From a virus: a stretch of DNA of 64,000 bases. Positions within the stretch are counted from its first letter, which is position 1; every line of letters begins with the position of its first letter. This document shows, piece after piece, positions 26,663-37,363 of this stretch. Made by a program: the position numbers and the translations under genes. The stretch covers positions 1 through 64,000 of IMG/VR virus record IMGVR_UViG_3300035698_010466; one strand, written 5' to 3'. Under the pieces are notes generated by a model. That model was not told the origin of the DNA and did not search any database. It worked only from the letters and a program-made list of their open reading frames with translations.

Positions 26663-27067
26663 GGGGCAGTCAAGGAATCGATTGGCAGGAGATAATATTA
26701 AGATGCAAGTAGTGTTAAATGGAAACACTTAAATAACCTATTGAACAAACAATTGACAATATTTTTACAAACGCTCAAGTTGCGTTAGCAGCTTAGCAAA
26801 TTAGCGGTAACTGCTTAGAAACAGAAAGTTACAAAATTGAGTTGGGGAAAAAGGGTTTATAGTACCCTCTTAATTCCATCAGAAACCCTGATCCTTATAC
26901 ACGGAGACAGACCAACGGGTAATTCCAGAGGAGTGCTGTAATGGAATTTGCTGAGATCAATAACTCAGTTCAAAAATAATTGGAATGTTCGGTATTCCGA
27001 ACTAAACTTGTAAACGAATCTAATATATCAAATGAGCAAGACGCGGGTTCAACTCCCGCCTGCTCCC
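26663..27067 (+). ncRNA. ssrA: tmRNA; tag (A)DNIFTNAQVALAA*
   Basis: 5' GGGGCAG pairs with CTGCTCC including G3.U70; T-arm GCGGGTTCAACTCCCGC; tag ORF 26755-26796 ends LAA. Confidence 0.9.
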
Positions 27068-27117
27068 TCATAATATTTCTGCTCTTATTTATGAATATAT
27101 AAAATAAATTATATTTA

Positions 27118-28014
27118 ATGAAAAGAGCTGATAAAAGGAAGTATCATTACATATATAAAACAACATGTACAATTACAAAAAAGTTTTATATTGGATTGCA
27201 TTCCACTGATAATCTTGATGATGGTTATAAAGGATCAGGTCGACAGCTTTGGAACTCAATTAATCAGCATGGCAAAGAAAATCATATAACTGAAATTTTA
27301 GAATATTTACCTGATAGAAAAAGTCTATCTAATAGAGAACGTGAAATTGTTAATAAAAATCTTTTACGAGATAATATGTGTATGAATTTAACTTTAGGCG
27401 GTGGAGACATAAATGCACCATATCATGTAACAATTAAAGATAAAGATGGAAATACATTTAGAACACCAGTTAATGACCCAAGATATTTATCTGGAGAATT
27501 AGTTGTATTAGCAAACGGAAAAGTTACTGTTAAAGATAAAAATGGAAAAACTTTTAGAACTAGTCTTAGTGACCCAAGATATTTATCTGGAGAACTAGTT
27601 CCAGTTGCTAAAGGATTTGTTAATGTTAAAGATAAAAATGGGAATGGATATAGGGTATTAATCAGTGACCCAAGATATTTATCTGGAGAATTAGTAGGTG
27701 TCACTAAAAATAAAGTAACAGTTAAAGATAAAGATGGAAATATATACAGTGTATCAGTTAATGATTCAAGATATTTATCTGGAGAATTAATTCCTATATG
27801 GGTTGGTAAAAGTCATTCTTTAAGAACTAAGAATAAAATAAGTAAAACTAAAAAAGGTACACAAACAGGTTCAGCAAATTCTCAATTTGGCACATGTTGG
27901 ATTTATAACATAAAATTAGATGAAACTATTAAAATAAAAAAAACAAAATTATCTGATTATCTTAATAATGGTTGGATAAGAGGTAGAATAAAAAATAAAA
28001 AATATTATATATGA
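27118..28014 (+). CDS. GIY-YIG (Seg-like) homing endonuclease with four 32-aa repeats
   Basis: YIYKTT...FYIGLHST...Y.GSG; VKDK.G...DPRYLSGEL x4 (27427-27810); NSQFGTCWI. Confidence 0.8.
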   Translation: MKRADKRKYHYIYKTTCTITKKFYIGLHSTDNLDDGYKGSGRQLWNSINQHGKENHITEILEYLPDRKSLSNREREIVNKNLLRDNMCMNLTLGGGDINAPYHVTIKDKDGNTFRTPVNDPRYLSGELVVLANGKVTVKDKNGKTFRTSLSDPRYLSGELVPVAKGFVNVKDKNGNGYRVLISDPRYLSGELVGVTKNKVTVKDKDGNIYSVSVNDSRYLSGELIPIWVGKSHSLRTKNKISKTKKGTQTGSANSQFGTCWIYNIKLDETIKIKKTKLSDYLNNGWIRGRIKNKKYYI

Positions 28015-28367: not shown

Positions 28368-28389
28368 TAATTTTTAACACGAATATACA

Positions 28390-28420
28390 AGGCCTCCTAG
28401 TTATTCTGGGAGGCTTTTTT
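28390..28420 (+). terminator. intrinsic terminator
   Basis: GGCCTCCTAG-TTATT-CTGGGAGGCT followed by a T-run. Confidence 0.8.
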
Positions 28421-28444
28421 AGTTTAACTGCTTCGAAAAAAAAA

Positions 28445-28750
28445 TGAGGGTTTAGAGAAAAAGTTTCATAAATATTTTTTATTCCCAATAAAATTGATTA
28501 TATTTAATTATAATTAAAAACGGTAAAATTAAACACTGTTATAAACGTTCTTTAAAAAAATGAGGGAAATAAGAAAAAAGTTTCATAAAAATTTTTTATT
28601 CCCAATTTAATTGATTATATTTAATTATAATTAAAAACGGTAAAATTAAACACCGTAACAAACGTTCTTTAAAAAAAATGAGGGAATTAAGAAAAAAGTT
28701 TCATAAAAATTTTTTATTCCCAATTTAATTGATTATATTTATATTGTAAT
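28445..28750 (+). repeat. three tandem ~117-bp promoter units upstream of the tRNA array
   Basis: Units start at 28445, 28561 and 28679 (TGAGGG...AAAGTTTCATAAA...ATTCCCAAT...TTGATTATATTTA). Confidence 0.9.
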
Positions 28751-28864
28751 TAATTCAAACTATTACAAATGTGAAATTAAAGTTTCAAGAAAAAAGTTTC
28801 GAGAAAATTTCAAATCGCAAAAACTTTATTACATTCGTACTGAAATTGATTACTTTTATAATAC

Positions 28865-28876
28865 CGCTCTTTGACA
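28865..28876 (+). promoter_or_regulatory. boxA-like antitermination site (further copies at 28546-28557 and 28663-28674)
   Basis: CGCTCTTTGACA and CGTTCTTTAAAA compared with the rrn boxA TGCTCTTTAACA. Confidence 0.6.
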
Positions 28877-28884
28877 TATTGGAT

Positions 28885-28978
28885 GATATCAAATAAACAC
28901 CTCCTCGTGGTGATATTGGATACGATTGAAAATAATTCGACTAATTATCTTATGACGATAAATCTAACTAAGTTTATT
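28885..28978 (+). ncRNA. HDV-like self-cleaving ribozyme
   Basis: P1 GATATC/GATATT (G1.U), P2 AATAAAC/GTTTATT, P3 ACC/GGT, L3 TCCTCGT, GG for P1.1, J4/2 AACTAA. Confidence 0.7.
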
Positions 28979-29095
28979 ATTTCCGGAAGGAATGAGGCAA
29001 TATAGAATTAGCCGTTTGTTAAGGCTAGGAGCATACCATAACTCAAGCATTTAAGTCATTAACTGATGCAAATATTGTAACGGAACTGCAGTTCC

Positions 29096-29155
29096 AATCT
29101 GGCCAGGGTGAAAGCGCGACTATCGCAAGCATAAGGTTCGACTCCTTACAGATTA
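29096..29155 (+). other. degenerate tRNA-like element
   Basis: AATCTG/CAGATT stem and T-arm TAAGGTTCGACTCCTTA; no proper anticodon loop. Confidence 0.35.
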
Positions 29156-29167
29156 TTTTAATTATAT

Positions 29168-29239
29168 TGATCCATGGTGTAATCGGTAACACATAACACT
29201 TTGAATGTTAAGTACCAGGTTCAAATCCTGGTGGACCAA
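29168..29239 (+). tRNA. tRNA-Gln(TTG)
   Basis: TAACA-CTTTGAA-TGTTA; cloverleaf. Confidence 0.85.
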
Positions 29240-29318
29240 CTGAGTATCTAGATTTTTGTTTGCAAGCCCTTATTGTTACAATCGGCCGATACTAATGATA
29301 AGGAATCGAAAATACTTT

Positions 29319-29389
29319 CGCGATATAGTATAGTGGTAGTACATTGGCGTTCGAAGCTGGTGGCTCAGGTTCGATTCCTGATATCGCAA
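29319..29389 (+). tRNA. atypical tRNA, anticodon TCG (Arg?) or pseudo-tRNA
   Basis: Good D and T arms; weak G.U-rich anticodon stem; C1/A72 mismatch. Confidence 0.45.
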
Positions 29390-29406
29390 CTATTGTAACT
29401 AAACAT

Positions 29407-29480
29407 GGCCCTTTCGTCTAATAGGCTAGGACACATCTCTTTCAAGGATGAAACGCACGGATCGTAACCGGCAGGGGTCA
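29407..29480 (+). tRNA. tRNA-Glu(TTC)
   Basis: CATCT-CTTTCAA-GGATG; T-loop ATCGTAA. Confidence 0.85.
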
Positions 29481-29545
29481 CTAAATTAATCTGATGCCGT
29501 ATAAAATATCGGTAGTATCTGAGGCTAGGATTAATTTTTAAACAT

Positions 29546-29618
29546 GGATTAGTAGCTCAAATGGTAGAGCGCCGGTGTGAAGTACCGGAGGTAGGTGGAT
29601 CGTTACCACCCTATTCCA
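29546..29618 (+). tRNA. tRNA-Phe(GAA)
   Basis: CCGGT-GTGAAGT-ACCGG. Confidence 0.8.
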
Positions 29619-29844
29619 CTGCATTGATTACCGGCTACAATCATCGGTCCTTTACCCTAAATTGTTAGGGAAATAACCAAAATGGGCAAACCGGGAAGCT
29701 TTCGTAAACGTATCCAAACCCTCAGTAGGGGATACCGAAAAGAAATAAATTGTATAAGAAGCGAAAAATGGTCAACTCGAGATAAGGCCAGAGTATTGTA
29801 TGAAAAAATATCCGTAAGGAGAATAACGAAGGGGTTTTTATAAT

Positions 29845-29926
29845 GGGTACGGAAAGTCATTTCGGATATGACAATCGGTCTGTAACACCGATCCTTTGGG
29901 GCGTGGTTCGAGTCCACCCGGATCCA
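29845..29926 (+). tRNA. tRNA-Tyr(GTA)
   Basis: ATCGGT-CTGTAAC-ACCGAT; variable arm present. Confidence 0.8.
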
Positions 29927-30114
29927 CTAAAATCATGGAGTATCGAAGATAACGTAGAAGCGGTAGGATTAATTTGCAAGAAGGCCTACAACGTTTGCAA
30001 ACTCAAATTGATTTTAACTTTTAAATGATTTTAAAAAATCTGTGCTAATAATAACATGTAAAAAATTAGAACAGTTTCCTCGGGCAAGGTCTATGGAAAT
30101 ATTTAAAAGTCAAT

Positions 30115-30188
30115 ACTCTCGAAGCTCAAGTGAAAGTAGCTACGCTCTTTTAAAGCGAAGGTTGCAGGTTTGATCCCTGCGGGGAGTA
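30115..30188 (+). tRNA. tRNA-Lys(TTT)
   Basis: CGCT-CTTTTAA-AGCG. Confidence 0.75.
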
Positions 30189-30195
30189 CAAAAAA

Positions 30196-30281
30196 TTGGA
30201 AGTGATGAAATTGGCAAACATACTTCCCCAAGAGGGAAGTGGAAATATATTTCCGTAGTGGTTCGAGTCCACTCTTCCAAT
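30196..30281 (+). tRNA. tRNA-Leu (anticodon CAA or AAG, loop atypical)
   Basis: Long variable arm; CTTCC-CCAAGAG-GGAAG. Confidence 0.7.
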
Positions 30282-30490
30282 CAAATAAAATTAGTAAAGA
30301 AATCTAAATCTTGGATGGATACATCAATGTAGATTGGCAAGGATATTAATTTTATCAATAAGTAGCCGAAAGGTGTAGATAAACTAATGCATGATACGAG
30401 TACAGGGAACCAGCCCAATGACTCTACTTATGAACTTATCGCTAATAGGTTTCCACCTTGGGAAGCGTTAAATATTCCTAAACGGACCAC

Positions 30491-30560
30491 GTCTGCGTAG
30501 TGTAATGGCTAGCATATCTGACTGTCTATCAGAAGGAGGGGTTCGAATCCCACGTCGACG
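30491..30560 (+). tRNA. tRNA-Asp(GTC)
   Basis: TCTGA-CTGTCTA-TCAGA; G73. Confidence 0.75.
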
Positions 30561-30640
30561 GCTAAGTTAATAGTAAACGCACCTAACGATTCTGAAAAGA
30601 ACCGCGGACAAAATTCTTAGGTCTATTAACATTTTTAAAT

Positions 30641-30715
30641 ACCTTTGTAGGCCTCTTGGTGAGGAACTAGGCTGTCAACCTAGTAAGACAAACGGATCGT
30701 AACCGTTCAGGGGTG
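30641..30715 (+). tRNA. tRNA-Asp(GTC), second divergent copy
   Basis: CTAGG-CTGTCAA-CCTAG; G73. Confidence 0.8.
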
Positions 30716-30720
30716 CAAAT

Positions 30721-30805
30721 GTTTCTATAGTTTAATATTCGGAGTTAACCCTCCAGAAAAACACGGACTAGTACGAGCTTTAGGTTTGAAATCCTAATAG
30801 AGACA
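30721..30805 (+). other. tRNA-like RNA with a hairpin inserted in the D-loop and a degenerate anticodon arm
   Basis: GTTTCTA/TAGAGAC acceptor; GGAG-TTAACC-CTCC inside the D-loop. Confidence 0.45.
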
Positions 30806-30812
30806 CAAATAC

Positions 30813-30957
30813 CATTCTATAGTGTAAGACTAGGAACAAGTATTTAAGATAAGTATTCGACAAAGATCTATCGAAAAAAGGCTTAAAGAAAATTCTGTAC
30901 TAGAACACAACCCTCATGGGGAGGGTAGATACAGTATCAAATCTGTTAGAATGACCA
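30813..30957 (+). other. tRNA-Pro(TGG)-like RNA with a 79-nt structured D-loop
   Basis: CATTCTA/TAGAATG plus ACCA end; D-stem GTGT/ACAC; ACCCT-CATGGGG-AGGGT. Confidence 0.55.
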
Positions 30958-30958
30958 T

Positions 30959-31034
30959 CGGGTGGTAGAGGAGTCAGGTTTATCTCGGTATCTTTGGACG
31001 ATACAGCACGCAGGTTCAAATCCTGCTCACCCGA
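30959..31034 (+). tRNA. tRNA-Pro(TGG)
   Basis: GTATC-TTTGGAC-GATAC; C1-G72, A73. Confidence 0.85.
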
Positions 31035-31141
31035 CGACGGAGTTTTAATATTTTATTTTCTTCAAGTAAAGAAATTTTAAGTAGTCCTAGACAAAAGAAA
31101 TTTTAAATAAAATGATATGACTGATGGAGAGACATCAATAT

Positions 31142-31217
31142 CTGGTGGTAGAGGAGTCAGGTTTATCTCGGTATCTTTGGACGATACAGCACGCAGGTTC
31201 GAATCCTGCCTATCAGA
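31142..31217 (+). tRNA. tRNA-Pro(TGG), near-identical second copy
   Basis: Same body as the copy at 30959. Confidence 0.85.
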
Positions 31218-31582
31218 CAATTATATTAAGTTGAAAATCTAACATTGTATTATGTTATACTAAATACCTTGGTACAACATATTAAGAATTGGTATTTTAT
31301 TACAATTTCAAAACCTATGAATACGTTAGATTGATTGATGATACTATAAAAGATTCCCCAATATACCAATGGTTTCAACAGTTGCGGGGTGCGAGAAGTG
31401 TCGATACGGATTTATAACCTGTATAAATAACCTGACAGTCAACTTGGACTATTATTGTTTCATAGAGGTATGGCTTAATATAATTTTTTAAAATTATCAC
31501 AGTGGGCTGTTAATTAAAATGTTTAAAAAATATATAGATGAATTTAATCCTTTACCAGGTATTAAATACTCAATAAATTAAT

Positions 31583-31670
31583 TCTAAGGTTGCCGTAGTT
31601 GGTCGAACGGTCCAGACTGTTAATCTGGTGAGTGTAAACTCCATCGTAGGTTCGAATCCTCCCCTTAGAG
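31583..31670 (+). tRNA. tRNA-Asn(GTT) with a long variable arm
   Basis: CCAGA-CTGTTAA-TCTGG; variable arm GAGT-GTAA-ACTC. Confidence 0.75.
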
Positions 31671-31706
31671 CGCAAATAGAAATCTTTAAAGATTTCAAAA
31701 ATATAT

Positions 31707-31782
31707 TGCGGGATGGTAGCAGATGGTTTAGCTCACCGGGCTCATAACCCGGAGGTCGGGGGTTCAAGTCCCTCTCCCGCAA
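31707..31782 (+). tRNA. tRNA-Met(CAT), initiator-type
   Basis: CCGGG-CTCATAA-CCCGG with three G-C pairs. Confidence 0.85.
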
Positions 31783-32018
31783 CTTTAAACATTTCTGACA
31801 CATTAATGAATTTATATGTTGTGCGTATTGTTAAATCAGACAAGCTATAATGCTGTTTAGGGATAGTTTTATAGTATACATACTAATTTTCTGGTCTCCC
31901 TAAGATTAGAAAATGTTAACGTGGTTTTATAATATACTTGGAAAGTTAAAGAGCGGACATAGATCCGTAAACTTTAACGATATAGGGTTCGAGTCCCTTG
32001 TGGAACACTATTTAATAC

Positions 32019-32092
32019 GGGTCTTTAGCTTAGTAGGTTAAAGCAGTTGACTCATAATCAAAAGATCGCAGGTTCGATTCCTGCAAGGCCCA
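32019..32092 (+). tRNA. tRNA(CAT), probably Ile2
   Basis: GGGTCTT acceptor typical of Ile2; TTGA-CTCATAA-TCAA. Confidence 0.8.
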
Positions 32093-32273
32093 CTTAATTC
32101 TTACATAAGGTACATTAGCAGTACTGAAAGAACTCTTAACTCTCACAGGATCGCAACCTTTAATGAGAGCTTTAAATGGCTTAAGAGATAATGTTGGAGT
32201 CCCTGCTCTATCATGCATGGTAACAGGTTATAGGGAACAAACTATAGGTAAAAACTCGACAGAAGAATTATAT

Positions 32274-32358
32274 GGAAGGCATCCGGAAGGCATGAGGAGC
32301 TGCTCTTGAAAAGCAGTAATGGGTAAGACCATCGGGGGTTCGAATCCGCCGTCTTCCT
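32274..32358 (+). tRNA. tRNA-Ser(TGA)
   Basis: CTGCT-CTTGAAA-AGCAG; variable arm. Confidence 0.85.
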
Positions 32359-32534
32359 CAAACATTTTTAAAGTTATAAGCTAGTAAGGTCTGGGCGAAT
32401 GGACACCAGGTTACCCCAATAGACAGATTTTAAAAATGGGAATATTATCTTACATTCAGCTCTAATATTCTAAGTACATCAGAGGTTCAATTGGGAACAC
32501 TTAAATGTTGAATTCAAAACTCACTCTGATAAAC

Positions 32535-32608
32535 GCGAGTAACGCATAAATGGTGGTGCACCTGCCTTCCAAGCAGGAACAGAGTCGGTTCGATTCCGAC
32601 TATTCGCT
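32535..32608 (+). tRNA. tRNA-Gly(TCC)
   Basis: CCTGC-CTTCCAA-GCAGG. Confidence 0.85.
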
Positions 32609-32618
32609 CAAATTCATA

Positions 32619-32759
32619 AGGTTTCTTACAGCAACTAACTACTTTAAATCTGCTGCCTTAAATGGCTTACGTGGTTCGAACCCCGTTGCTCCCACTATTA
32701 AATTATCACATGGGAGTATGATGGAACTGGAAAACATGGCGGATGTAAAATAGAAACCT
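32619..32759 (+). ncRNA. TACAGCAA-family RNA containing a circularly permuted tRNA-Leu-like domain
   Basis: tRNA 3' half (32642-32694) precedes the 5' half (32712-32744), closed by AGGTTTCT/AGAAACCT. Confidence 0.65.
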
Positions 32760-32772
32760 GGAATTTATTTAA

Positions 32773-32831
32773 AGGATGCTTACAGCAAATTAAACCAAAT
32801 CAAACTTGAAAATTGAAAAACCATGCATCCT
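32773..32831 (+). ncRNA. TACAGCAA-family RNA with an anticodon-like stem-loop (CTTGAAA)
   Basis: AGGATGC/GCATCCT closing stem followed by TACAGCAA. Confidence 0.55.
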
Positions 32832-32850
32832 GAATTTTTACTTACTACAT

Positions 32851-32923
32851 GGGGAATTGGTGAAATTGGCTATCACAAGACTCTTGCAAAGTCTAGTTTC
32901 CGAATCGTACTCGGAATTCTCCA
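32851..32923 (+). tRNA. tRNA-Ala(TGC)
   Basis: AGACT-CTTGCAA-AGTCT; G3.U70. Confidence 0.85.
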
Positions 32924-32971
32924 CTATTATCGGTTCAATTTATTGTGACTCCATGAATATATAAAATAAAA

Positions 32972-33754
32972 ATGGATATAAAGTATATTTGTAAAGAATG
33001 CAATATTGAATTTAAAACATTTCAAGATAAAGCTAATCATGTTAGATGGAAACATAAAGATAATTCAAATTATTTAATAAAGGCAAGTGAATCTGCTAAA
33101 AAAGCTTGGACTAAAAAATTAGGGAAATGGGTAGATGAAACTACTGAATGTTACATATGTAAAACTATATTTGATATTAGATATAGAGAAGGAAAGAAAA
33201 AAAATAAATATTTTTGTTCAAGATCATGCGCAAATAGTAGAATTATTACTAAAAAAACTAGAGATAAAATATCTAAATCGTTAATCGGTAAACCTTCTCC
33301 ACGTATTCATTTGAACATTAAAAAAGTTTGTGGTCAATGTAATTGTGAATTTGAAGTACGTGCTACAAGAAGAAATCAAAAGTTTTGTTCTATAGAATGT
33401 TCGAATAAATTTAGAAAAAAAACTAGGTCAGAATTTGCAAATTATAAATCTGAATGTAGATTTAATTTTAATTTAGCTGATTACCCTGATGAATTTGATT
33501 TTACTTTAATAGAAAATTTTGGTTGGTATAAAGCTGCAAATAGAGGAAATAATTTAAACGGTATTAGCAGAGATCATATGATAAGTGTTAAATATGGATA
33601 TGAACATAATATCGATTCAAAATTTATTAGTCATCCTGCAAATTGTAAATTAATGAGGCATAATGATAATGTAAGTAAATATACAAAATGTTCTATTTCT
33701 CTAACAGAATTATTAAATAAAATAGAATATTGGAATAAAACATATAAAAAATAA
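32972..33754 (+). CDS. zinc-finger/HNH-type homing endonuclease within the tRNA array
   Basis: C2H2 finger, FCSRSC/FCSIEC, SRDH...HPANC...N.SK. Confidence 0.7.
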   Translation: MDIKYICKECNIEFKTFQDKANHVRWKHKDNSNYLIKASESAKKAWTKKLGKWVDETTECYICKTIFDIRYREGKKKNKYFCSRSCANSRIITKKTRDKISKSLIGKPSPRIHLNIKKVCGQCNCEFEVRATRRNQKFCSIECSNKFRKKTRSEFANYKSECRFNFNLADYPDEFDFTLIENFGWYKAANRGNNLNGISRDHMISVKYGYEHNIDSKFISHPANCKLMRHNDNVSKYTKCSISLTELLNKIEYWNKTYKK

Positions 33755-33773
33755 TAAAAGATTATTTTTAATT

Positions 33774-33849
33774 GCGATAATAGCTCAGTTGGTAGAGCAT
33801 TAGGTTGCCAATCTAAAGGTCGTGGGTTCGAATCCCATTTATCGCTCCA
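33774..33849 (+). tRNA. tRNA-Gly(GCC)
   Basis: TTAGG-TTGCCAA-TCTAA; encoded CCA. Confidence 0.88.
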
Positions 33850-33852
33850 AAC

Positions 33853-33926
33853 GCTTCCATAGTTTAGAAGGCAGAAAACCCCGGATTTGTAACCCGGAAA
33901 ACTCAGTTCGATCCTGAGTGGGAGCT
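33853..33926 (+). tRNA. tRNA-Thr(TGT)
   Basis: CCGGA-TTTGTAA-CCCGG. Confidence 0.8.
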
Positions 33927-33949
33927 CTCAAATAAATCAAAAATAGTAT

Positions 33950-34459
33950 ATGATAGGTACAATTACAATAATTCAATCTTTAATAATAGTATCATATATT
34001 ACTTTTCTTTTAATAAAATTTAAAGGACCTTTATCGTCGATATCACAATCATGGTATGCATTAAAGCCTTATAATTTAAGTTACTTATTTTATATTTTTA
34101 TGATATCATTAGGTTTATGTATGGATTTTAGACATGATCCTTTTTATTATATGTCAGGAATGGGTTTATTTTTAGTCGCAGGAGCGGCTGCATTTAGATC
34201 AAAATATAAAGGAACAAATATTCTACATTATACAGGAGTGTTATTAGCTACTGTTTTTGCTTTTTGGGGGCAATATTATAAAGTAGGTATATTACCACAG
34301 AGTATTAGTATACTCTCACTGGTCGCTCTGATATTTATCTTTTTTAGAAAGGATTATTTATGGTGGATAGAAATAGCAATATTCATATCAATAATGATAG
34401 GATTTGCAATACAAGATATGCGGGGTGGACTGGAGATGGTTACCAGCTCGGGCTCATAA
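33950..34459 (+). CDS. multi-pass membrane protein
   Basis: Several hydrophobic segments; SISQSWY motif; 3' end overlaps a tRNA. Confidence 0.65.
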   Translation: MIGTITIIQSLIIVSYITFLLIKFKGPLSSISQSWYALKPYNLSYLFYIFMISLGLCMDFRHDPFYYMSGMGLFLVAGAAAFRSKYKGTNILHYTGVLLATVFAFWGQYYKVGILPQSISILSLVALIFIFFRKDYLWWIEIAIFISIMIGFAIQDMRGGLEMVTSSGS

Positions 34460-34497
34460 CCCGAACGACGAAGGTTCGATTCCTTCCCCCGCACCCA
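34419..34497 (+). tRNA. tRNA-Met(CAT), initiator-type second copy
   Basis: TCGGG-CTCATAA-CCCGA. Confidence 0.8.
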
Positions 34498-34538
34498 TAA
34501 CGCGGTTAGAGTTTCGCGTTTAAACAAAAACTCAAAAT

Positions 34539-34611
34539 TGACAGATAGCCCAAATGGTAGAGGGTCCGGCTGTTAACCGGAAAGATATAGGTTCGAACCC
34601 TATTCTGTCAG
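34539..34611 (+). tRNA. tRNA-Asn(GTT)
   Basis: TCCGG-CTGTTAA-CCGGA; G73. Confidence 0.85.
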
Positions 34612-34618
34612 CAAATAT

Positions 34619-34693
34619 GCTCGTGTGGTCAAAATGGTAAAGGCGCTGGTTTTAGACACCAGAGATTTGAGGGTTCGACTCCCTCCATGAGTA
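34619..34693 (+). tRNA. tRNA-Leu(TAG) with a short variable loop
   Basis: CTGGT-TTTAGAC-ACCAG. Confidence 0.75.
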
Positions 34694-34782
34694 CAAAGAA
34701 AGTAAGGTTAAAGATGATAGTCTGTAATAAAGCCGACGACTATACGAGATGCATCTCGTTTCCGGTTATCTTTCTTTCTTTA

Positions 34783-34852
34783 GATGATATAACTCAATGG
34801 GTAGAGTAGGGCTTAGCGGCCTTAGTTACAGGTTCGAATCCTGTTATCATCG
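34783..34852 (+). other. tRNA-like RNA with a 6-nt anticodon loop (identity undetermined)
   Basis: GATGATA/TATCATC acceptor, normal D and T arms, AGGGC-TTAGCG-GCCTT. Confidence 0.5.
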
Positions 34853-34872
34853 CAACAATAATATTCTGCATA

Positions 34873-34932
34873 AGGATGCCTACAGCAAACTAAACTAAAC
34901 CAAACTTTTAATTTGAAAACACTGTGTATCCT
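34873..34932 (+). ncRNA. TACAGCAA-family RNA with an anticodon-like stem-loop (CTTTTAA)
   Basis: AGGATGC/GTATCCT closing stem, TACAGCAA, CAAA-CTTTTAA-TTTG. Confidence 0.55.
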
Positions 34933-34938
34933 GTATAT

Positions 34939-35018
34939 GATCCTGTGGTGAAAATGGTAGACACGTTAGGTTTAAGCCCTAATGCTTATGCGTGCCGGTT
35001 CGAATCCGGCCAGGATTA
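34939..35018 (+). tRNA. tRNA-Leu(TAA)
   Basis: TTAGG-TTTAAGC-CCTAA. Confidence 0.85.
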
Positions 35019-35064
35019 CACGGTGGTTTTTCGAGGGTTCCACTTCAAATAAACCTGAGACCAT

Positions 35065-35139
35065 GCTCCTTTAGCTTAGTAGGTTTAAAGCGTGATTCTT
35101 ACAAAATTGAGACCGGTGGTTCGAATCCACCAGGGAGTA
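35065..35139 (+). tRNA. tRNA-Val(TAC)
   Basis: TGATT-CTTACAA-AATTG. Confidence 0.8.
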
Positions 35140-35145
35140 CAATAT

Positions 35146-35218
35146 ACACGTATAGTTCAATCGGATAGAACATATGACTACGAATCATAAGATGAGGGTT
35201 CGATTCCTTCTATGTGTA
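35146..35218 (+). tRNA. tRNA-Arg(ACG)
   Basis: TATGA-CTACGAA-TCATA. Confidence 0.85.
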
Positions 35219-35232
35219 CAATAATTACAAAT

Positions 35233-35316
35233 GCCCCTGTATCTCATCGGTCTTCTAAACCGAGTCGTTAAATGAGTAATTGGAGTGACGTGTGGGTTCG
35301 ATTCCCTCCAGGGGTT
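35233..35316 (+). tRNA. D-armless tRNA-Arg(TCT)-like RNA with an extended variable arm
   Basis: GCCCCTG/CAGGGGT, TCGGT-CTTCTAA-ACCGA, only 7 nt in place of the D-arm. Confidence 0.6.
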
Positions 35317-35407
35317 CTAAAATTCAGTTTTCTGACACCTAGGGTTAGTGAATAATTTAAAGCAGAACATAAGTGGTACACAAGTCCACGACTGAATTTT
35401 TTGACAT

Positions 35408-35478
35408 ACGTCTGTATCTTAATGGTAAAGTACTGGTCTCCAAAACCAGCAATGGGGGTTCGACTCCTCCCAGGCGTG
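35408..35478 (+). tRNA. tRNA-Trp(CCA)
   Basis: CTGGT-CTCCAAA-ACCAG. Confidence 0.85.
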
Positions 35479-35488
35479 CACATAACAT

Positions 35489-35563
35489 CGATACGTGGCC
35501 AAGTAGGTGAAGGCACCTGGCTGATAACCAGGAGATGCGCAGGTTCAATTCCTGCCGTATCGA
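35489..35563 (+). tRNA. tRNA-Ile(GAT)
   Basis: CCTGG-CTGATAA-CCAGG. Confidence 0.85.
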
Positions 35564-35568
35564 CATAA

Positions 35569-35653
35569 GGAAGGCTGACAGAAAGGTATTGTATTAGTTT
35601 GCTAAACTAAAGTCTGTGTCAAACCAGTGGGGGTTCGAATCCGCCGCCTTCCT
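35569..35653 (+). tRNA. tRNA-Ser(GCT)
   Basis: TTAGT-TTGCTAA-ACTAA; variable arm. Confidence 0.8.
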
Positions 35654-35739
35654 CAAAAAATATTTTAAAAATAATCACCCAAAAATTTTTATTTCCCAAT
35701 AAAATTGATTATATTTAATTATAATTAAAAACGGAAATA

Positions 35740-35907
35740 ATGAAAGTAACAATAATGAAAATGAAACACACCTTATTAGTTGAAGACAAAAAAGGTAAAG
35801 AGTCTCAAATTCCATTATGGGCTTTGATTGATGAATGTGGTCATACTATGATACAAGTTTATAGTAAAGAAGAACCAATAGAATTACAAAAAGAATTAGA
35901 AAAATAG
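35740..35907 (+). CDS. small hypothetical protein (55 aa) behind an early-type promoter
   Basis: Hand-translated MKVTIMKMKHTLL...ELEK*; promoter copy at 35686. Confidence 0.5.
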   Translation: MKVTIMKMKHTLLVEDKKGKESQIPLWALIDECGHTMIQVYSKEEPIELQKELEK

Positions 35908-36146
35908 AAAATTATTGATTAAGTGTACTAAGGTTCTGATACCAAGCTGTAAACGCGCAAGGAGGATATACCGACATCGCTGGTATGAGAAAACATGCTA
36001 ATCAATATATAAAAATTAATCCCGTAAAAGCAATTAAGAATGTATGCATACAATCGGTATTTTTAAGTTGCAACTTGAAGGCACCCCGTCATTGATGGTA
36101 CTAATGTTCGACTCATTGGCAATGAATTAATTGTGAGGGATTATAT

Positions 36147-36220
36147 GGCGAGGTAGCTTAGTTGGTCAGAGCGTCGGAATCATAACCCGAAGGTCACCGG
36201 TTCGAAACCGGTCCTCGCTA
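36147..36220 (+). tRNA. tRNA-Met(CAT), elongator-type
   Basis: GGCGAGG acceptor; TCGG-AATCATAAC-CCGA. Confidence 0.8.
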
Positions 36221-36223
36221 CAT

Positions 36224-36421
36224 TAAAAGAATGTCCATCGCTCGTAAGAGAGGAAGTTCAGGACATCGCAGTTTAAGGCAGGAGATTCAACGCTTATCGG
36301 AATCGTTCGTACTGCCGAGGATGCAACTTCAAAACAGCTTAGAGGATGAACTGCTCATAAAGCAAGGTAGAAGGCAAAGATAAATGATGGACCACGACAG
36401 GATCCTGGCTATATTCTTTTA
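36224..36421 (+). ncRNA. rnpB: minimal RNase P RNA (~198 nt)
   Basis: P1 TAAAAGAAT/ATTCTTTTA, P2 GTCCATC/GATGGAC, GAGGAAGTTCAGG (CR-I), AGCAAG, AGATAAATG, ACAGGATCCTGGCTATA (CR-V). Confidence 0.75.
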
Positions 36422-36543
36422 AAAATTAAATTGAGTGGTAGTAGGACGGAATATTGTAGGTTGCTGGACACAAACCGCAATAAAGGTAAAGCTCTAAATT
36501 GTAAAATCCAGTAAGGGCGAATAAAGTAACTCAATTTTTATAT

Positions 36544-36618
36544 GGTGTTTGAAGCATTAAGGTGATGCGTCTGACTGTGACTCAGAAGAACTTGGATCAA
36601 TACCAAGCTAATACCCCA
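36544..36618 (+). tRNA. tRNA-His(GTG)
   Basis: G-1, TCTGA-CTGTGAC-TCAGA, CCCA end. Confidence 0.8.
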
Positions 36619-36652
36619 ATTTAATAAGTATAAATATTTTAAATTAATTAAC

Positions 36653-37162
36653 ATGAGCAAGTATACAAAAACATTAGTCGTTGATAATAGTTATATTCCA
36701 CGAAGTATAATTCGTACAGAAAGAGCCTTTGTTATTTCATATAAAGGAAATGCTGATGTTATTGCAGAACATCCAGAATCATTTAAGTTAGTTAATCCTA
36801 ATTTAGATATTTTAAAGCCATCAATAATTAAAGTACACAGATTTATTAATTCTCCATTTTATAAAGTTCCTTTAACAAGAGTGAATGTTTTTAGACGTGA
36901 TAATTTTGAATGTGTATATTGTGGAAAGGGTGATCATAAAAAAGAATTAACTCTTGACCACGTAATTCCTAAATCAAAGGGTGGTCCAGATTCTTGGGAT
37001 AATTTAGTAACTGCATGCAAATCATGTAATATCGAAAAATCTGATTTAACTTTAGAAGAATGGGGTAAGGAAATTCCTAAACCACATAGACCACATTATT
37101 TAATGTTAATAAAAAAATTAGATTATGTTCCAGAAGAATGGAAAAAATACTTATTATTCTAA
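36653..37162 (+). CDS. HNH endonuclease (McrA-like)
   Basis: RDNFECVYCG...LTLDHVIPKSKGG..SWDNLVTACKSCN..K. Confidence 0.9.
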   Translation: MSKYTKTLVVDNSYIPRSIIRTERAFVISYKGNADVIAEHPESFKLVNPNLDILKPSIIKVHRFINSPFYKVPLTRVNVFRRDNFECVYCGKGDHKKELTLDHVIPKSKGGPDSWDNLVTACKSCNIEKSDLTLEEWGKEIPKPHRPHYLMLIKKLDYVPEEWKKYLLF

Positions 37163-37191
37163 ACAAAGCCTGATTAATTTCAGGTTTTTAT

Positions 37192-37272
37192 GAAGGTGTA
37201 CCTAAGCGGCCAAAGGGGATGGATTGCAAATTCATTGCGAAAGCTTCGTCAGTTCGAATCTGACTACCTTCT
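37192..37272 (+). tRNA. tRNA-Cys(GCA) with an extended variable arm
   Basis: ATGGA-TTGCAAA-TTCAT; U73; GC-GAAA-GC variable arm. Confidence 0.8.
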
Positions 37273-37363
37273 CTCTTTCAGAAATCATATACTTAGTTTA
37301 TATTTTAATTAAACTAATGTTAATATATGCTATATAAAAATATAGATAATTTAAAAATCCAAT

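Follow-up and report, generated by a model that had tools for sequence, protein, structure and literature searches.

Organisation of the locus

The window analysed in this work, meaning the whole 64-kb (64,000-nt) stretch of DNA, is the first part of the 90,935-bp IMG/VR virus record IMGVR_UViG_3300035698_010466, the completeness of which was estimated at about 30% by CheckV. The subject of this study is a predicted hepatitis delta virus (HDV)-like ribozyme at positions 28885-28978 of the + strand, which is situated between a boxA-type sequence and a large array of tRNA genes. A previous sequence-only reading had placed this ribozyme at the head of the tRNA-array transcript, and the layout that we found agrees with that placement: a terminator-like hairpin is followed by boxA-bearing repeats of 117 nt, the ribozyme and 30 tRNA genes starting at 29168. 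The features flanking the ribozyme are the following:

28389..28417 (+), terminator-like hairpin with a 12-bp stem and a T-run
28437..28788 (+), three tandem repeat units of 117/118 nt; a degenerate fourth unit reaches 28884
28866..28882 (+), boxA-type GCTCTTTGACATATTGG, with 16/17 letters of the Bacteroidota rrn spacer motif GTTCTTTGACATATTGG; 2 nt before G1 of the ribozyme
28979..29167 (+), spacer of 189 nt, which would remain 3' of the ribozyme
29168..29240 (+), tRNA-Gln(UUG), first of the 30 tRNA genes (ARAGORN, Rfam)

Three terminator-like sites were found, compared with 0.5 expected in shuffles. The hairpin at 28389-28417 would close the upstream unit, so that the transcript of the tRNA array must start downstream of it. 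Between this hairpin and the ribozyme lie the 117-nt units, which are AT-rich. Two of them carry a boxA-like GTTCTTTAAAAAA (TCTTTAAAAAA at 28549-28559 and 28666-28676) with a short hairpin before each; a perfect 16-nt palindrome, TTTAATTATAATTAAA, is also present in two units together with a small hairpin (ACGGT...ACCGT) and the boxA-like sequence. Since a sigma-70 promoter scan of the locus performed no better than in shuffles, a promoter role of these repeats is conjectural; they could be tandem promoters with leaders, in the fashion of rRNA operons, or else protein-binding repeats.

The 30 genes of the tRNA array are all on one strand, from 29168 to 37273, according to ARAGORN and Rfam. An HNH endonuclease gene is located inside the array and genes for T4-type topoisomerase II subunits lie directly beyond it. 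The nearest RNA gene upstream of the ribozyme was a transfer-messenger RNA (tmRNA) at 26663-27070, detected by both programs, and neither of them called a tRNA upstream of 28885, just as the sequence-only reading had reported, nor a hidden tRNA in the spacer of 189 nt or directly ahead of the ribozyme. The spacer contains, at about 29096-29157, a minihelix resembling an acceptor/T-arm (AATCTG...TAAGGTTCGACTCCTTACAGATT, also written AATCTG ... TAAGGTTCGACTCCTTA CAGATT). It was not called a tRNA by ARAGORN or Rfam. In a loose alignment, its T-arm and some further letters agree with a tRNA-like stretch, likewise uncalled, located directly after the first boxA of a related locus (L079, see below); it is possibly a degenerate tRNA. 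At gathering thresholds, Rfam recognised tRNAs and the tmRNA in the whole window and no ribozyme. When the region 28400-29400 was compared by blastn with a GenBank phage collection, a single match was obtained, of 69 nt in the tRNA-Gln gene, to the crAss-like cr106_1.

Architecture of the predicted ribozyme

All the nested double-pseudoknot elements that had been described from the sequence were present in the right order, at the following positions:

28884..28885 (+), predicted scissile bond U28884 (-1) / G28885 (G1), deduced from the HDV-like architecture
28885..28890 (+), 5' strand of P1, GATATC, pairing with G28912-T28917 (6 bp, with a G28885.T28917 wobble)
A28891 (+), J1/2
28892..28898 (+), 5' strand of P2, AATAAAC, pairing with G28972-T28978 (7 bp)
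28899..28911 (+), P3 ACC/GGT (A28899-C28901 with G28909-T28911) enclosing L3 TCCTCGT (28902-28908)
28912..28919 (+), 3' strand of P1, GATATT, and then the GG of P1.1
28920..28967 (+), AU-rich P4 region of 48 nt; no stable helix closes it
28968..28971 (+), J4/2 CTAA, with the candidate catalytic C28968
28972..28978 (+), 3' strand of P2, GTTTATT

The pairing of P1.1 is possible between C28903/C28904 and G28919/G28918. Position -1 was a pyrimidine in all 31 unique family members that could be parsed (T in 27 and C in 4). An 18-nt direct repeat, 78% identical, was observed at 28867-28884 and 28904-28921, and the tail of the boxA, ATATTGGAT, copies the 3' strand of P1 plus GG; the leader is thus able to pair with the 5' strand of P1.

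The closest described relatives are the theta ribozymes (Kienbeck et al. 2024, PMC10879173), a group of minimal HDV-like ribozymes from gut Caudoviricetes. In the supplement of that paper they are segmented as P1, J, P2, ACC, T, CC, TCGT, GGT, P1', GG, L4, CTAA and P2', and the core ACC-T-CC-TCGT-GGT, the GG and the CTAA are letter-identical in the window, with the same order of P1, P2, P3, P1.1 and J4/2. The sequence CCTCCTCGTGG occurs 675 times in supplement file 5 of the same paper, where four theta ribozymes are reported to cleave in vitro in a Mg2+-dependent manner and to be inactivated by a C-to-U change.

Frequency of the fold in shuffled sequences and in viral contigs

There is a single copy of the GC-rich 13-nt core, ACCTCCTCGTGGT, in the window, and the whole AT-rich 90,935-bp record contains no further one. 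Of 20,000 shuffles of the window's own flanks around the fixed core, 677 produced a perfect P1 with G as its first letter, and 27 produced P1 together with a P2 of at least 7 bp after C-N-N-A. In viral contigs, exact matches to a 16-mer were found at 37 loci, with complementary P1 strands around the core in 6 of them, and a wider pattern (ACCTCCTCGTGGT, 6-7 nt, GG) gave at least 115 loci. Among 116 core matches, the window included, a perfect P1 of 6-7 bp beginning with G was found in 53 (4.1 expected with shuffled flanks), and in 42 it was accompanied by a P2 of 5 bp or more after C-N-N-A (1.1 expected). The core matches in L557 and L558 were rejected as ribozymes; they resemble coding sequence instead.

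Covariation with relatives

Eight sequences from three lineages were aligned: the window, L079/L424 and L084/L099/L110/L028/L030, all the relatives having long P4 inserts. Covariation was counted on the structure in pseudoknot brackets, which comprises 18 pairs. Every cell of these pairs was a standard pair in 8/8 sequences (100% paired), and both sides had changed in six pairs, namely four of the six pairs of P1 and two of P2. None of 500 shuffles reached the observed values of pairing and covariation, and sliding the 3' partners by 1-3 columns lowered the pairing to 19.8-46.5%. The alignment showed no variation in G1.U, in any of the three pairs of P3 and the two of P1.1, or in the cytosine of J4/2; the C28898-G28972 pair was kept in all eight sequences and J4/2 was either CTAA or CCAA. 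The P4 helices of the relatives have 6-10 bp, and the P4 stems of L079 and L424 differ by a C-G to U-A exchange.

The covariation in P2 fits the long form of the ribozyme, with C28968 as catalytic residue and 28972-28978 as 3' strand of P2, and not the short form to which the Rfam alignment leads. The HDV-like identity first read from the sequence was supported from two sides, the core being identical to that of theta ribozymes and P1 and P2 covarying across three lineages. These comparisons of sequence support the assignment of 28885-28978 as a genuine member of the phage HDV-like lineage, having a theta-type core and an expanded, poorly structured P4.

The boxA element in front of the ribozyme

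The sequence GCTCTTTGACATATTGG, which resembles the E. coli and general bacterial boxA consensus, ends 2 nt before G1. The distance of 9 nt between boxA and ribozyme given by the sequence-only reading depends on the end of boxA that is chosen: we found 2 nt after the complete 17-mer and 8 nt after ...GACA. On the + strand, the boxA-like pattern TCTTT[AG]A[AC]A[AT]A is matched at 28549, 28666 and 28868. Three tandem boxA-like boxes, 60-250 nt apart, were also observed ahead of or within tRNA arrays in L563, L572 and L578.

The 17-mer GTTCTTTGACATATTGG was found at more than 122 genome loci (L272 onward), nearly all of them from Bacteroidota according to the titles of their records. The name boxA given in the earlier reading was borne out when 16 Bacteroidota loci were scanned with Rfam, since in 14 of them this motif, which differs in one letter from that of the window, lies in the 16S-23S spacer, past tRNA-Ile/Ala and 72-198 nt before the 23S rRNA; L289 and L307 were the two loci without rRNA matches. 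The match of GCTCTTTGACATATTGG to the rrn spacers of Bacteroidota implies that the host of the phage is probably a member of this phylum. By analogy, the boxA at 28866-28882 would be expected to bind NusB/NusE.

In viral contigs the 15-mer TCTTTGACATATTGG occurred at more than 118 loci (L154-L271). A tRNA started on the same strand within 120 nt after it in 23/101 unique viral loci, with a gap of 6-13 nt in 22 of these 23, and a tRNA ended 6-17 nt before it in 11/101. This distribution suggests that phages borrow the rRNA-type anti-termination of their hosts for their own tRNA genes. Bacteroidota -7 boxes (TAnnTTT[GA]) near the 15-mer were enriched (upstream in 16/101 loci compared with downstream in 9/101) too weakly to place the promoter. 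The first 32 positions of the RF02956 (DUF2693 RNA) model aligned to the boxA region of the window, 28866-28902 (16.2 bits, E 0.88); this Bacteroidota boxA-type sequence is apparently also the beginning of the published RF02956 motif.

Position of the ribozyme relative to tRNA genes

Ribozymes situated 5' of tRNAs were found in three lineages. The order in the window is boxA, 2 nt, ribozyme, 189 nt and tRNA-Gln(UUG). L079 and L424, which represent one independent lineage with the order boxA-ribozyme-tRNA, have boxA, 3 nt, ribozyme, 7 nt, a tRNA (Rfam 45.6 and 51 bits) and then tRNA-Gln(UUG). L079 contains two tandem leader units; in the first, boxA leads directly into the tRNA-like sequence mentioned above, and in the second the ribozyme is inserted between the two. 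In the third lineage, L099, L110, L028, L030 and L530 have no boxA, and in L099 and L110 the ribozyme ends 4 nt before tRNA-Gln(UUG). With Rfam at E <=0.1, nothing was named in the 150-230 nt upstream of the ribozymes of the L099 group, and no HDV match was obtained for the locus of any relative. Given this 5'-side placement in the window, in L079/L424 and in L099/L110, the element would work 5' of tRNAs in these lineages.

The arrangement typical of theta ribozymes, with a tRNA 2-3 nt upstream of G1, was found by ARAGORN in only three of 52 other ribozyme-like loci (L061, L073 and L146). Placement directly 3' of a tRNA had been given as the normal situation of these phage ribozymes; this holds for 58% of theta occurrences, which are tRNA-associated, but it is overstated, given that 526 are not and were left unexplained in the published survey (PMC10879173). 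There, a ribozyme counts as tRNA-associated when a tRNA 3' end lies no more than 5 nt from its cleavage site.

The downstream tRNA-Gln genes of the three lineages are about 70% alike by column, a likeness that gives no support to the idea of ribozyme and tRNA-Gln as one travelling module. A match to the permuted tmRNA family RF04321 was observed inside the tRNA array of the L079 contig (L394 694-795, - strand; 55.2 bits vs a gathering score of 47).

As for the neighbouring genes of the window, a 298-aa open reading frame (ORF) lies directly upstream, at 27118-28014 (+), without a convincing Pfam domain. Its relatives (L514-L589; 33-73% identity over the best segment) are located at many positions inside many phage tRNA arrays and occur on contigs carrying the L028 and L011 ribozymes; judged by this distribution of sequences, the ORF behaves like a mobile, homing-endonuclease-like gene. 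It failed as a synteny anchor because its relatives are scattered through so many arrays. Within the tRNA array, the tRNA called by ARAGORN at 34783-34853 has a two-letter undetermined anticodon and an Rfam tRNA score of 54.6 bits, and two tRNAs missed by ARAGORN were detected by Rfam, at 30115-30188 (33.7 bits) and 36545-36615 (43.9 bits).

Weak points of the window copy and alternative explanations

Several observations weigh against a working ribozyme with a leader-removing role at this locus. The first group concerns stability. The long P4 region of the sequence-only reading exists as a 48-nt segment, but a convincing helix was not found in it: its best fold consists of two small local hairpins (-2.1 kcal/mol, z 0.42), and to close it by a helix (from T28921-A28966 to T28927-A28961, C28923 being bulged) would cost +0.1 to +1.6 kcal/mol, unlike the relatives, which have clear P4 stems. 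P1 and P2 together have a duplex energy of -5.3 kcal/mol, and these helices rank as the weakest among the 24 members scored (range -7.2 to -15.7), in a ranking that omits L045, L057, L059, L073, L101, L113 and L117, whose P4 exceeds 100 nt and whose P2 is probably mis-assigned. The nested-only minimum free energy (MFE) of the 94 nt was no better than that of shuffles (z 0.44), in a folding that is blind to the pseudoknot and uninformative. When the leader was included, the MFE structure contained a weak hairpin in which the boxA region competes for the 5' strand of P1; as a regulatory idea, this hairpin was dropped after it proved not to be conserved in L079.

The second group concerns recognition and rarity. 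The best Rfam match, to RF02682 (HDV-F-prausnitzii), covers 28886-28951 and aligns P1, P3, L3, the GG and the CUAA junction, but it reaches 22.5 bits vs a gathering score of 44, takes a short 3' solution and models no P2. Its E-value was 0.056 in a 501-nt search and 0.0024 in the whole record, where, in favour of the ribozyme, it was the sole match of this model and no other Rfam HDV family matched; sub-threshold matches of RF02682 were also found in 9/14 control genomes. In viral contigs the boxA-ribozyme junction pattern was found in the contig of L079 only, and a looser pattern gave, in metagenomes, one true case, L424, among the 118 matches listed. Finally, the search of public sequencing runs for the locus returned six DNA runs, five of them with small shares, and no RNA run was listed. 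All things considered, self-cleavage of the window ribozyme is plausible and not assured; we would put it at roughly two in three.

These weak points bear most directly on the possibility that the element is a decayed relic of HDV-like descent, which has lost a useful rate of cleavage while P1, P2 and P4 eroded in an AT-rich genome, and which is now a mere leader or spacer. The low P1 and P2 energy and the lack of a stable P4 fold would be expected of such a relic, as would the degenerate appearance of the 189-nt downstream stretch, with its T-arm-like minihelix and no tRNA call, and the sporadic presence of the ribozyme, which was found on the tRNA strand at 2/76 loci around relatives of the 298-aa ORF. 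Against erosion, all the letters of the catalytic core are intact, and P1 and P2 are fully paired even though both strands have changed in comparison with the nearest lineages, in a pairing that arose in just 27/20,000 flank shuffles. We regard decay as a minority possibility. If the window copy is inactive, the finding shrinks to a decayed member of a known family.

A second explanation accepts the cleavage and assigns it another purpose, the liberation of the leader itself. In this case the product of interest would be one or more free boxA RNAs with a cyclic-phosphate end, either held by the polymerase together with NusB/NusE, detached from the nascent chain, or accumulating and competing for Nus factors with the rRNA operons of the host. 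The cut falls 2-3 nt after a complete boxA 17-mer in two independent lineages and up to three boxA-like boxes precede it; moreover, setting the 3' end of an upstream RNA is also what has been proposed for theta ribozymes (PMC10879173). The explanation is purely inferential, though, and in the third lineage (L084/L099/L110/L028/L030) the 60 nt upstream of the ribozyme contain no boxA. Most phage copies of boxA, besides, stand directly before a tRNA with no ribozyme, where RNase P would make an equivalent cut. This purpose appears rather unlikely to us.

The P4 region also accommodates a shorter ribozyme, and this second 3' solution is a further point against the structure proposed above. It would have the hairpin 28926-28940 as P4, C28941 (followed by TAA) as catalytic residue and TTAT at 28945-28948 as 3' strand of P2, ending near 28951. 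This is the form chosen by the RF02682 alignment over 28886-28951; its local hairpin belongs to the MFE structure of the P4 segment and CTAA is indeed present at 28941-28944. Its P2, on the other hand, has merely 4 bp (A28893-A28896 with T28945-T28948) and leaves A28897 and C28898 unpaired beside P3, whereas the C at the position of 28898 pairs with the G after J4/2 in 8/8 sequences and two covarying P2 pairs fit the long form, which makes the short one improbable.

A chance resemblance without ribozyme ancestry is scarcely credible: the sub-threshold Rfam score, the weak matches of the model in control genomes and the unremarkable thermodynamic z-score would be compatible with it, but a GC-rich core of 13 nt is found a single time in 90.9 kb of AT-rich sequence, the P1/P2 pairing exceeds that of shuffles, the covariation with relatives is clear and the core is identical to that of a validated family.

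Proposed role in the tRNA-array transcript

The reading that we prefer, with a probability of roughly 60%, is that the HDV-like ribozyme is a natural leader-removing insulator and not a maker of tRNA 3' ends. It is known that boxA recruits the NusB/NusE anti-termination machinery and that RNase P generates the 5' ends of tRNAs. The tRNA array would be transcribed from one or more promoters within the 117-nt repeats, and the rrn-type boxA of each leader would recruit the NusB/NusE machinery of the host for the transcription of the long untranslated array, as may be expected from established knowledge of boxA and from the identity of the motif with that of Bacteroidota rrn spacers. Once G28972-T28978 had been transcribed, the double pseudoknot would fold, and C28968, to judge from homology, would catalyse a co-transcriptional cut between U28884 and G28885. 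The boxA leader or leaders would then be severed, ending in a 2',3'-cyclic phosphate; from the layout, the leader length may be estimated at about 20-25 nt if it comes from the proximal unit and at up to about 390 nt if it comes from the distal units. Whichever of the tandem promoters had fired, the array precursor would always have the same 5'-OH end, with the folded ribozyme as its cap, and RNase P would later remove the ribozyme and the spacer at the first tRNA.

As a more tentative extension, which we consider rather unlikely, the ribozyme might be a release device for an rrn-type anti-termination complex. Its cut, 2 nt past boxA and made before the polymerase had moved on by more than about 100 nt, would free the nascent tRNA precursor from its NusB/NusE-boxA tether. 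The short boxA RNA would then either stay on the polymerase through the 8-kb array or accumulate as a decoy for host Nus factors. If this is true, the locus would show, in a natural system, whether boxA anti-termination must keep a covalent link to the RNA in order to be processive.

Comparison with known systems

The leader of rRNA operons is removed by RNase III, which acts on a leader-trailer helix. The locus of the window shares with rrn leaders and spacers a boxA, GCTCTTTGACATATTGG, one letter off the Bacteroidota motif, and a long untranslated transcript that follows it, but it differs in the way of removal, with a predicted self-cleaving RNA placed 2 nt past the box. The HDV-like ribozymes of R2-type retrotransposons and the RiboJ insulators strip a variable upstream transcript by 5' self-cleavage and leave a defined 5'-OH. 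Like the predicted ribozyme of the window, they stand 5' of a functional RNA; those systems, in contrast, are eukaryotic or engineered, while the element described here is natural, phage-borne, and located before tRNAs and behind an anti-termination box.

With theta ribozymes the window element has in common, besides the core, a phage host genome and a setting rich in tRNA genes. More than 80% of theta ribozymes come from gut phages, with hosts mostly in Bacteroidota (PMC10879173), and the boxA of the window likewise points to Bacteroidota. There are three differences. The theta motif demands a short L4, which has 6 nt (GTAACG) in the supplement examples, and the P4 of the window has 48 nt; no tRNA 3' end is present at the cut of the window, where a boxA leader lies upstream and the tRNAs downstream; and the sole sequencing run with at least half of the sampled words of the window is labelled a salt-lake metagenome, which may be the source sample, and not one from gut. 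The window element is thus not a theta ribozyme by definition, given that it lacks the minimal P4 and, for the tRNA-associated subclass, the tRNA 3' end.

The sole job given so far to phage theta ribozymes, in the parts of the literature on them considered here, is the trimming of tRNA 3' ends, and about 40% of their copies have no assigned role (PMC10879173). The words upstream, leader and array do not occur in the main text of that paper. In the full-text literature searched, which leaves most subscription journals outside its coverage, no HDV-like ribozyme was described behind a boxA and none was described 5' of phage tRNA arrays; in one of the papers on boxA, antitermination and phage (PMC10250234), a hammerhead ribozyme was used just as a tool. 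What is new here is the placement behind boxA and the long P4 form of an otherwise known kind of ribozyme.

Significance

Theta-core ribozymes with long P4 inserts exist, and the published motif would miss them. The host rrn boxA, for its part, is placed by phages ahead of their tRNA genes. The same catalytic core was found 5' of tRNAs in the window, in L079/L424 and in the L099 group, in two of these lineages right behind an rRNA-type boxA, which suggests a second role for theta-core ribozymes, namely the removal or the release of the leaders of tRNA-array transcripts. The boxA-ribozyme junction could be a compact natural system in which to ask whether Nus-factor anti-termination survives the cutting of its RNA tether.

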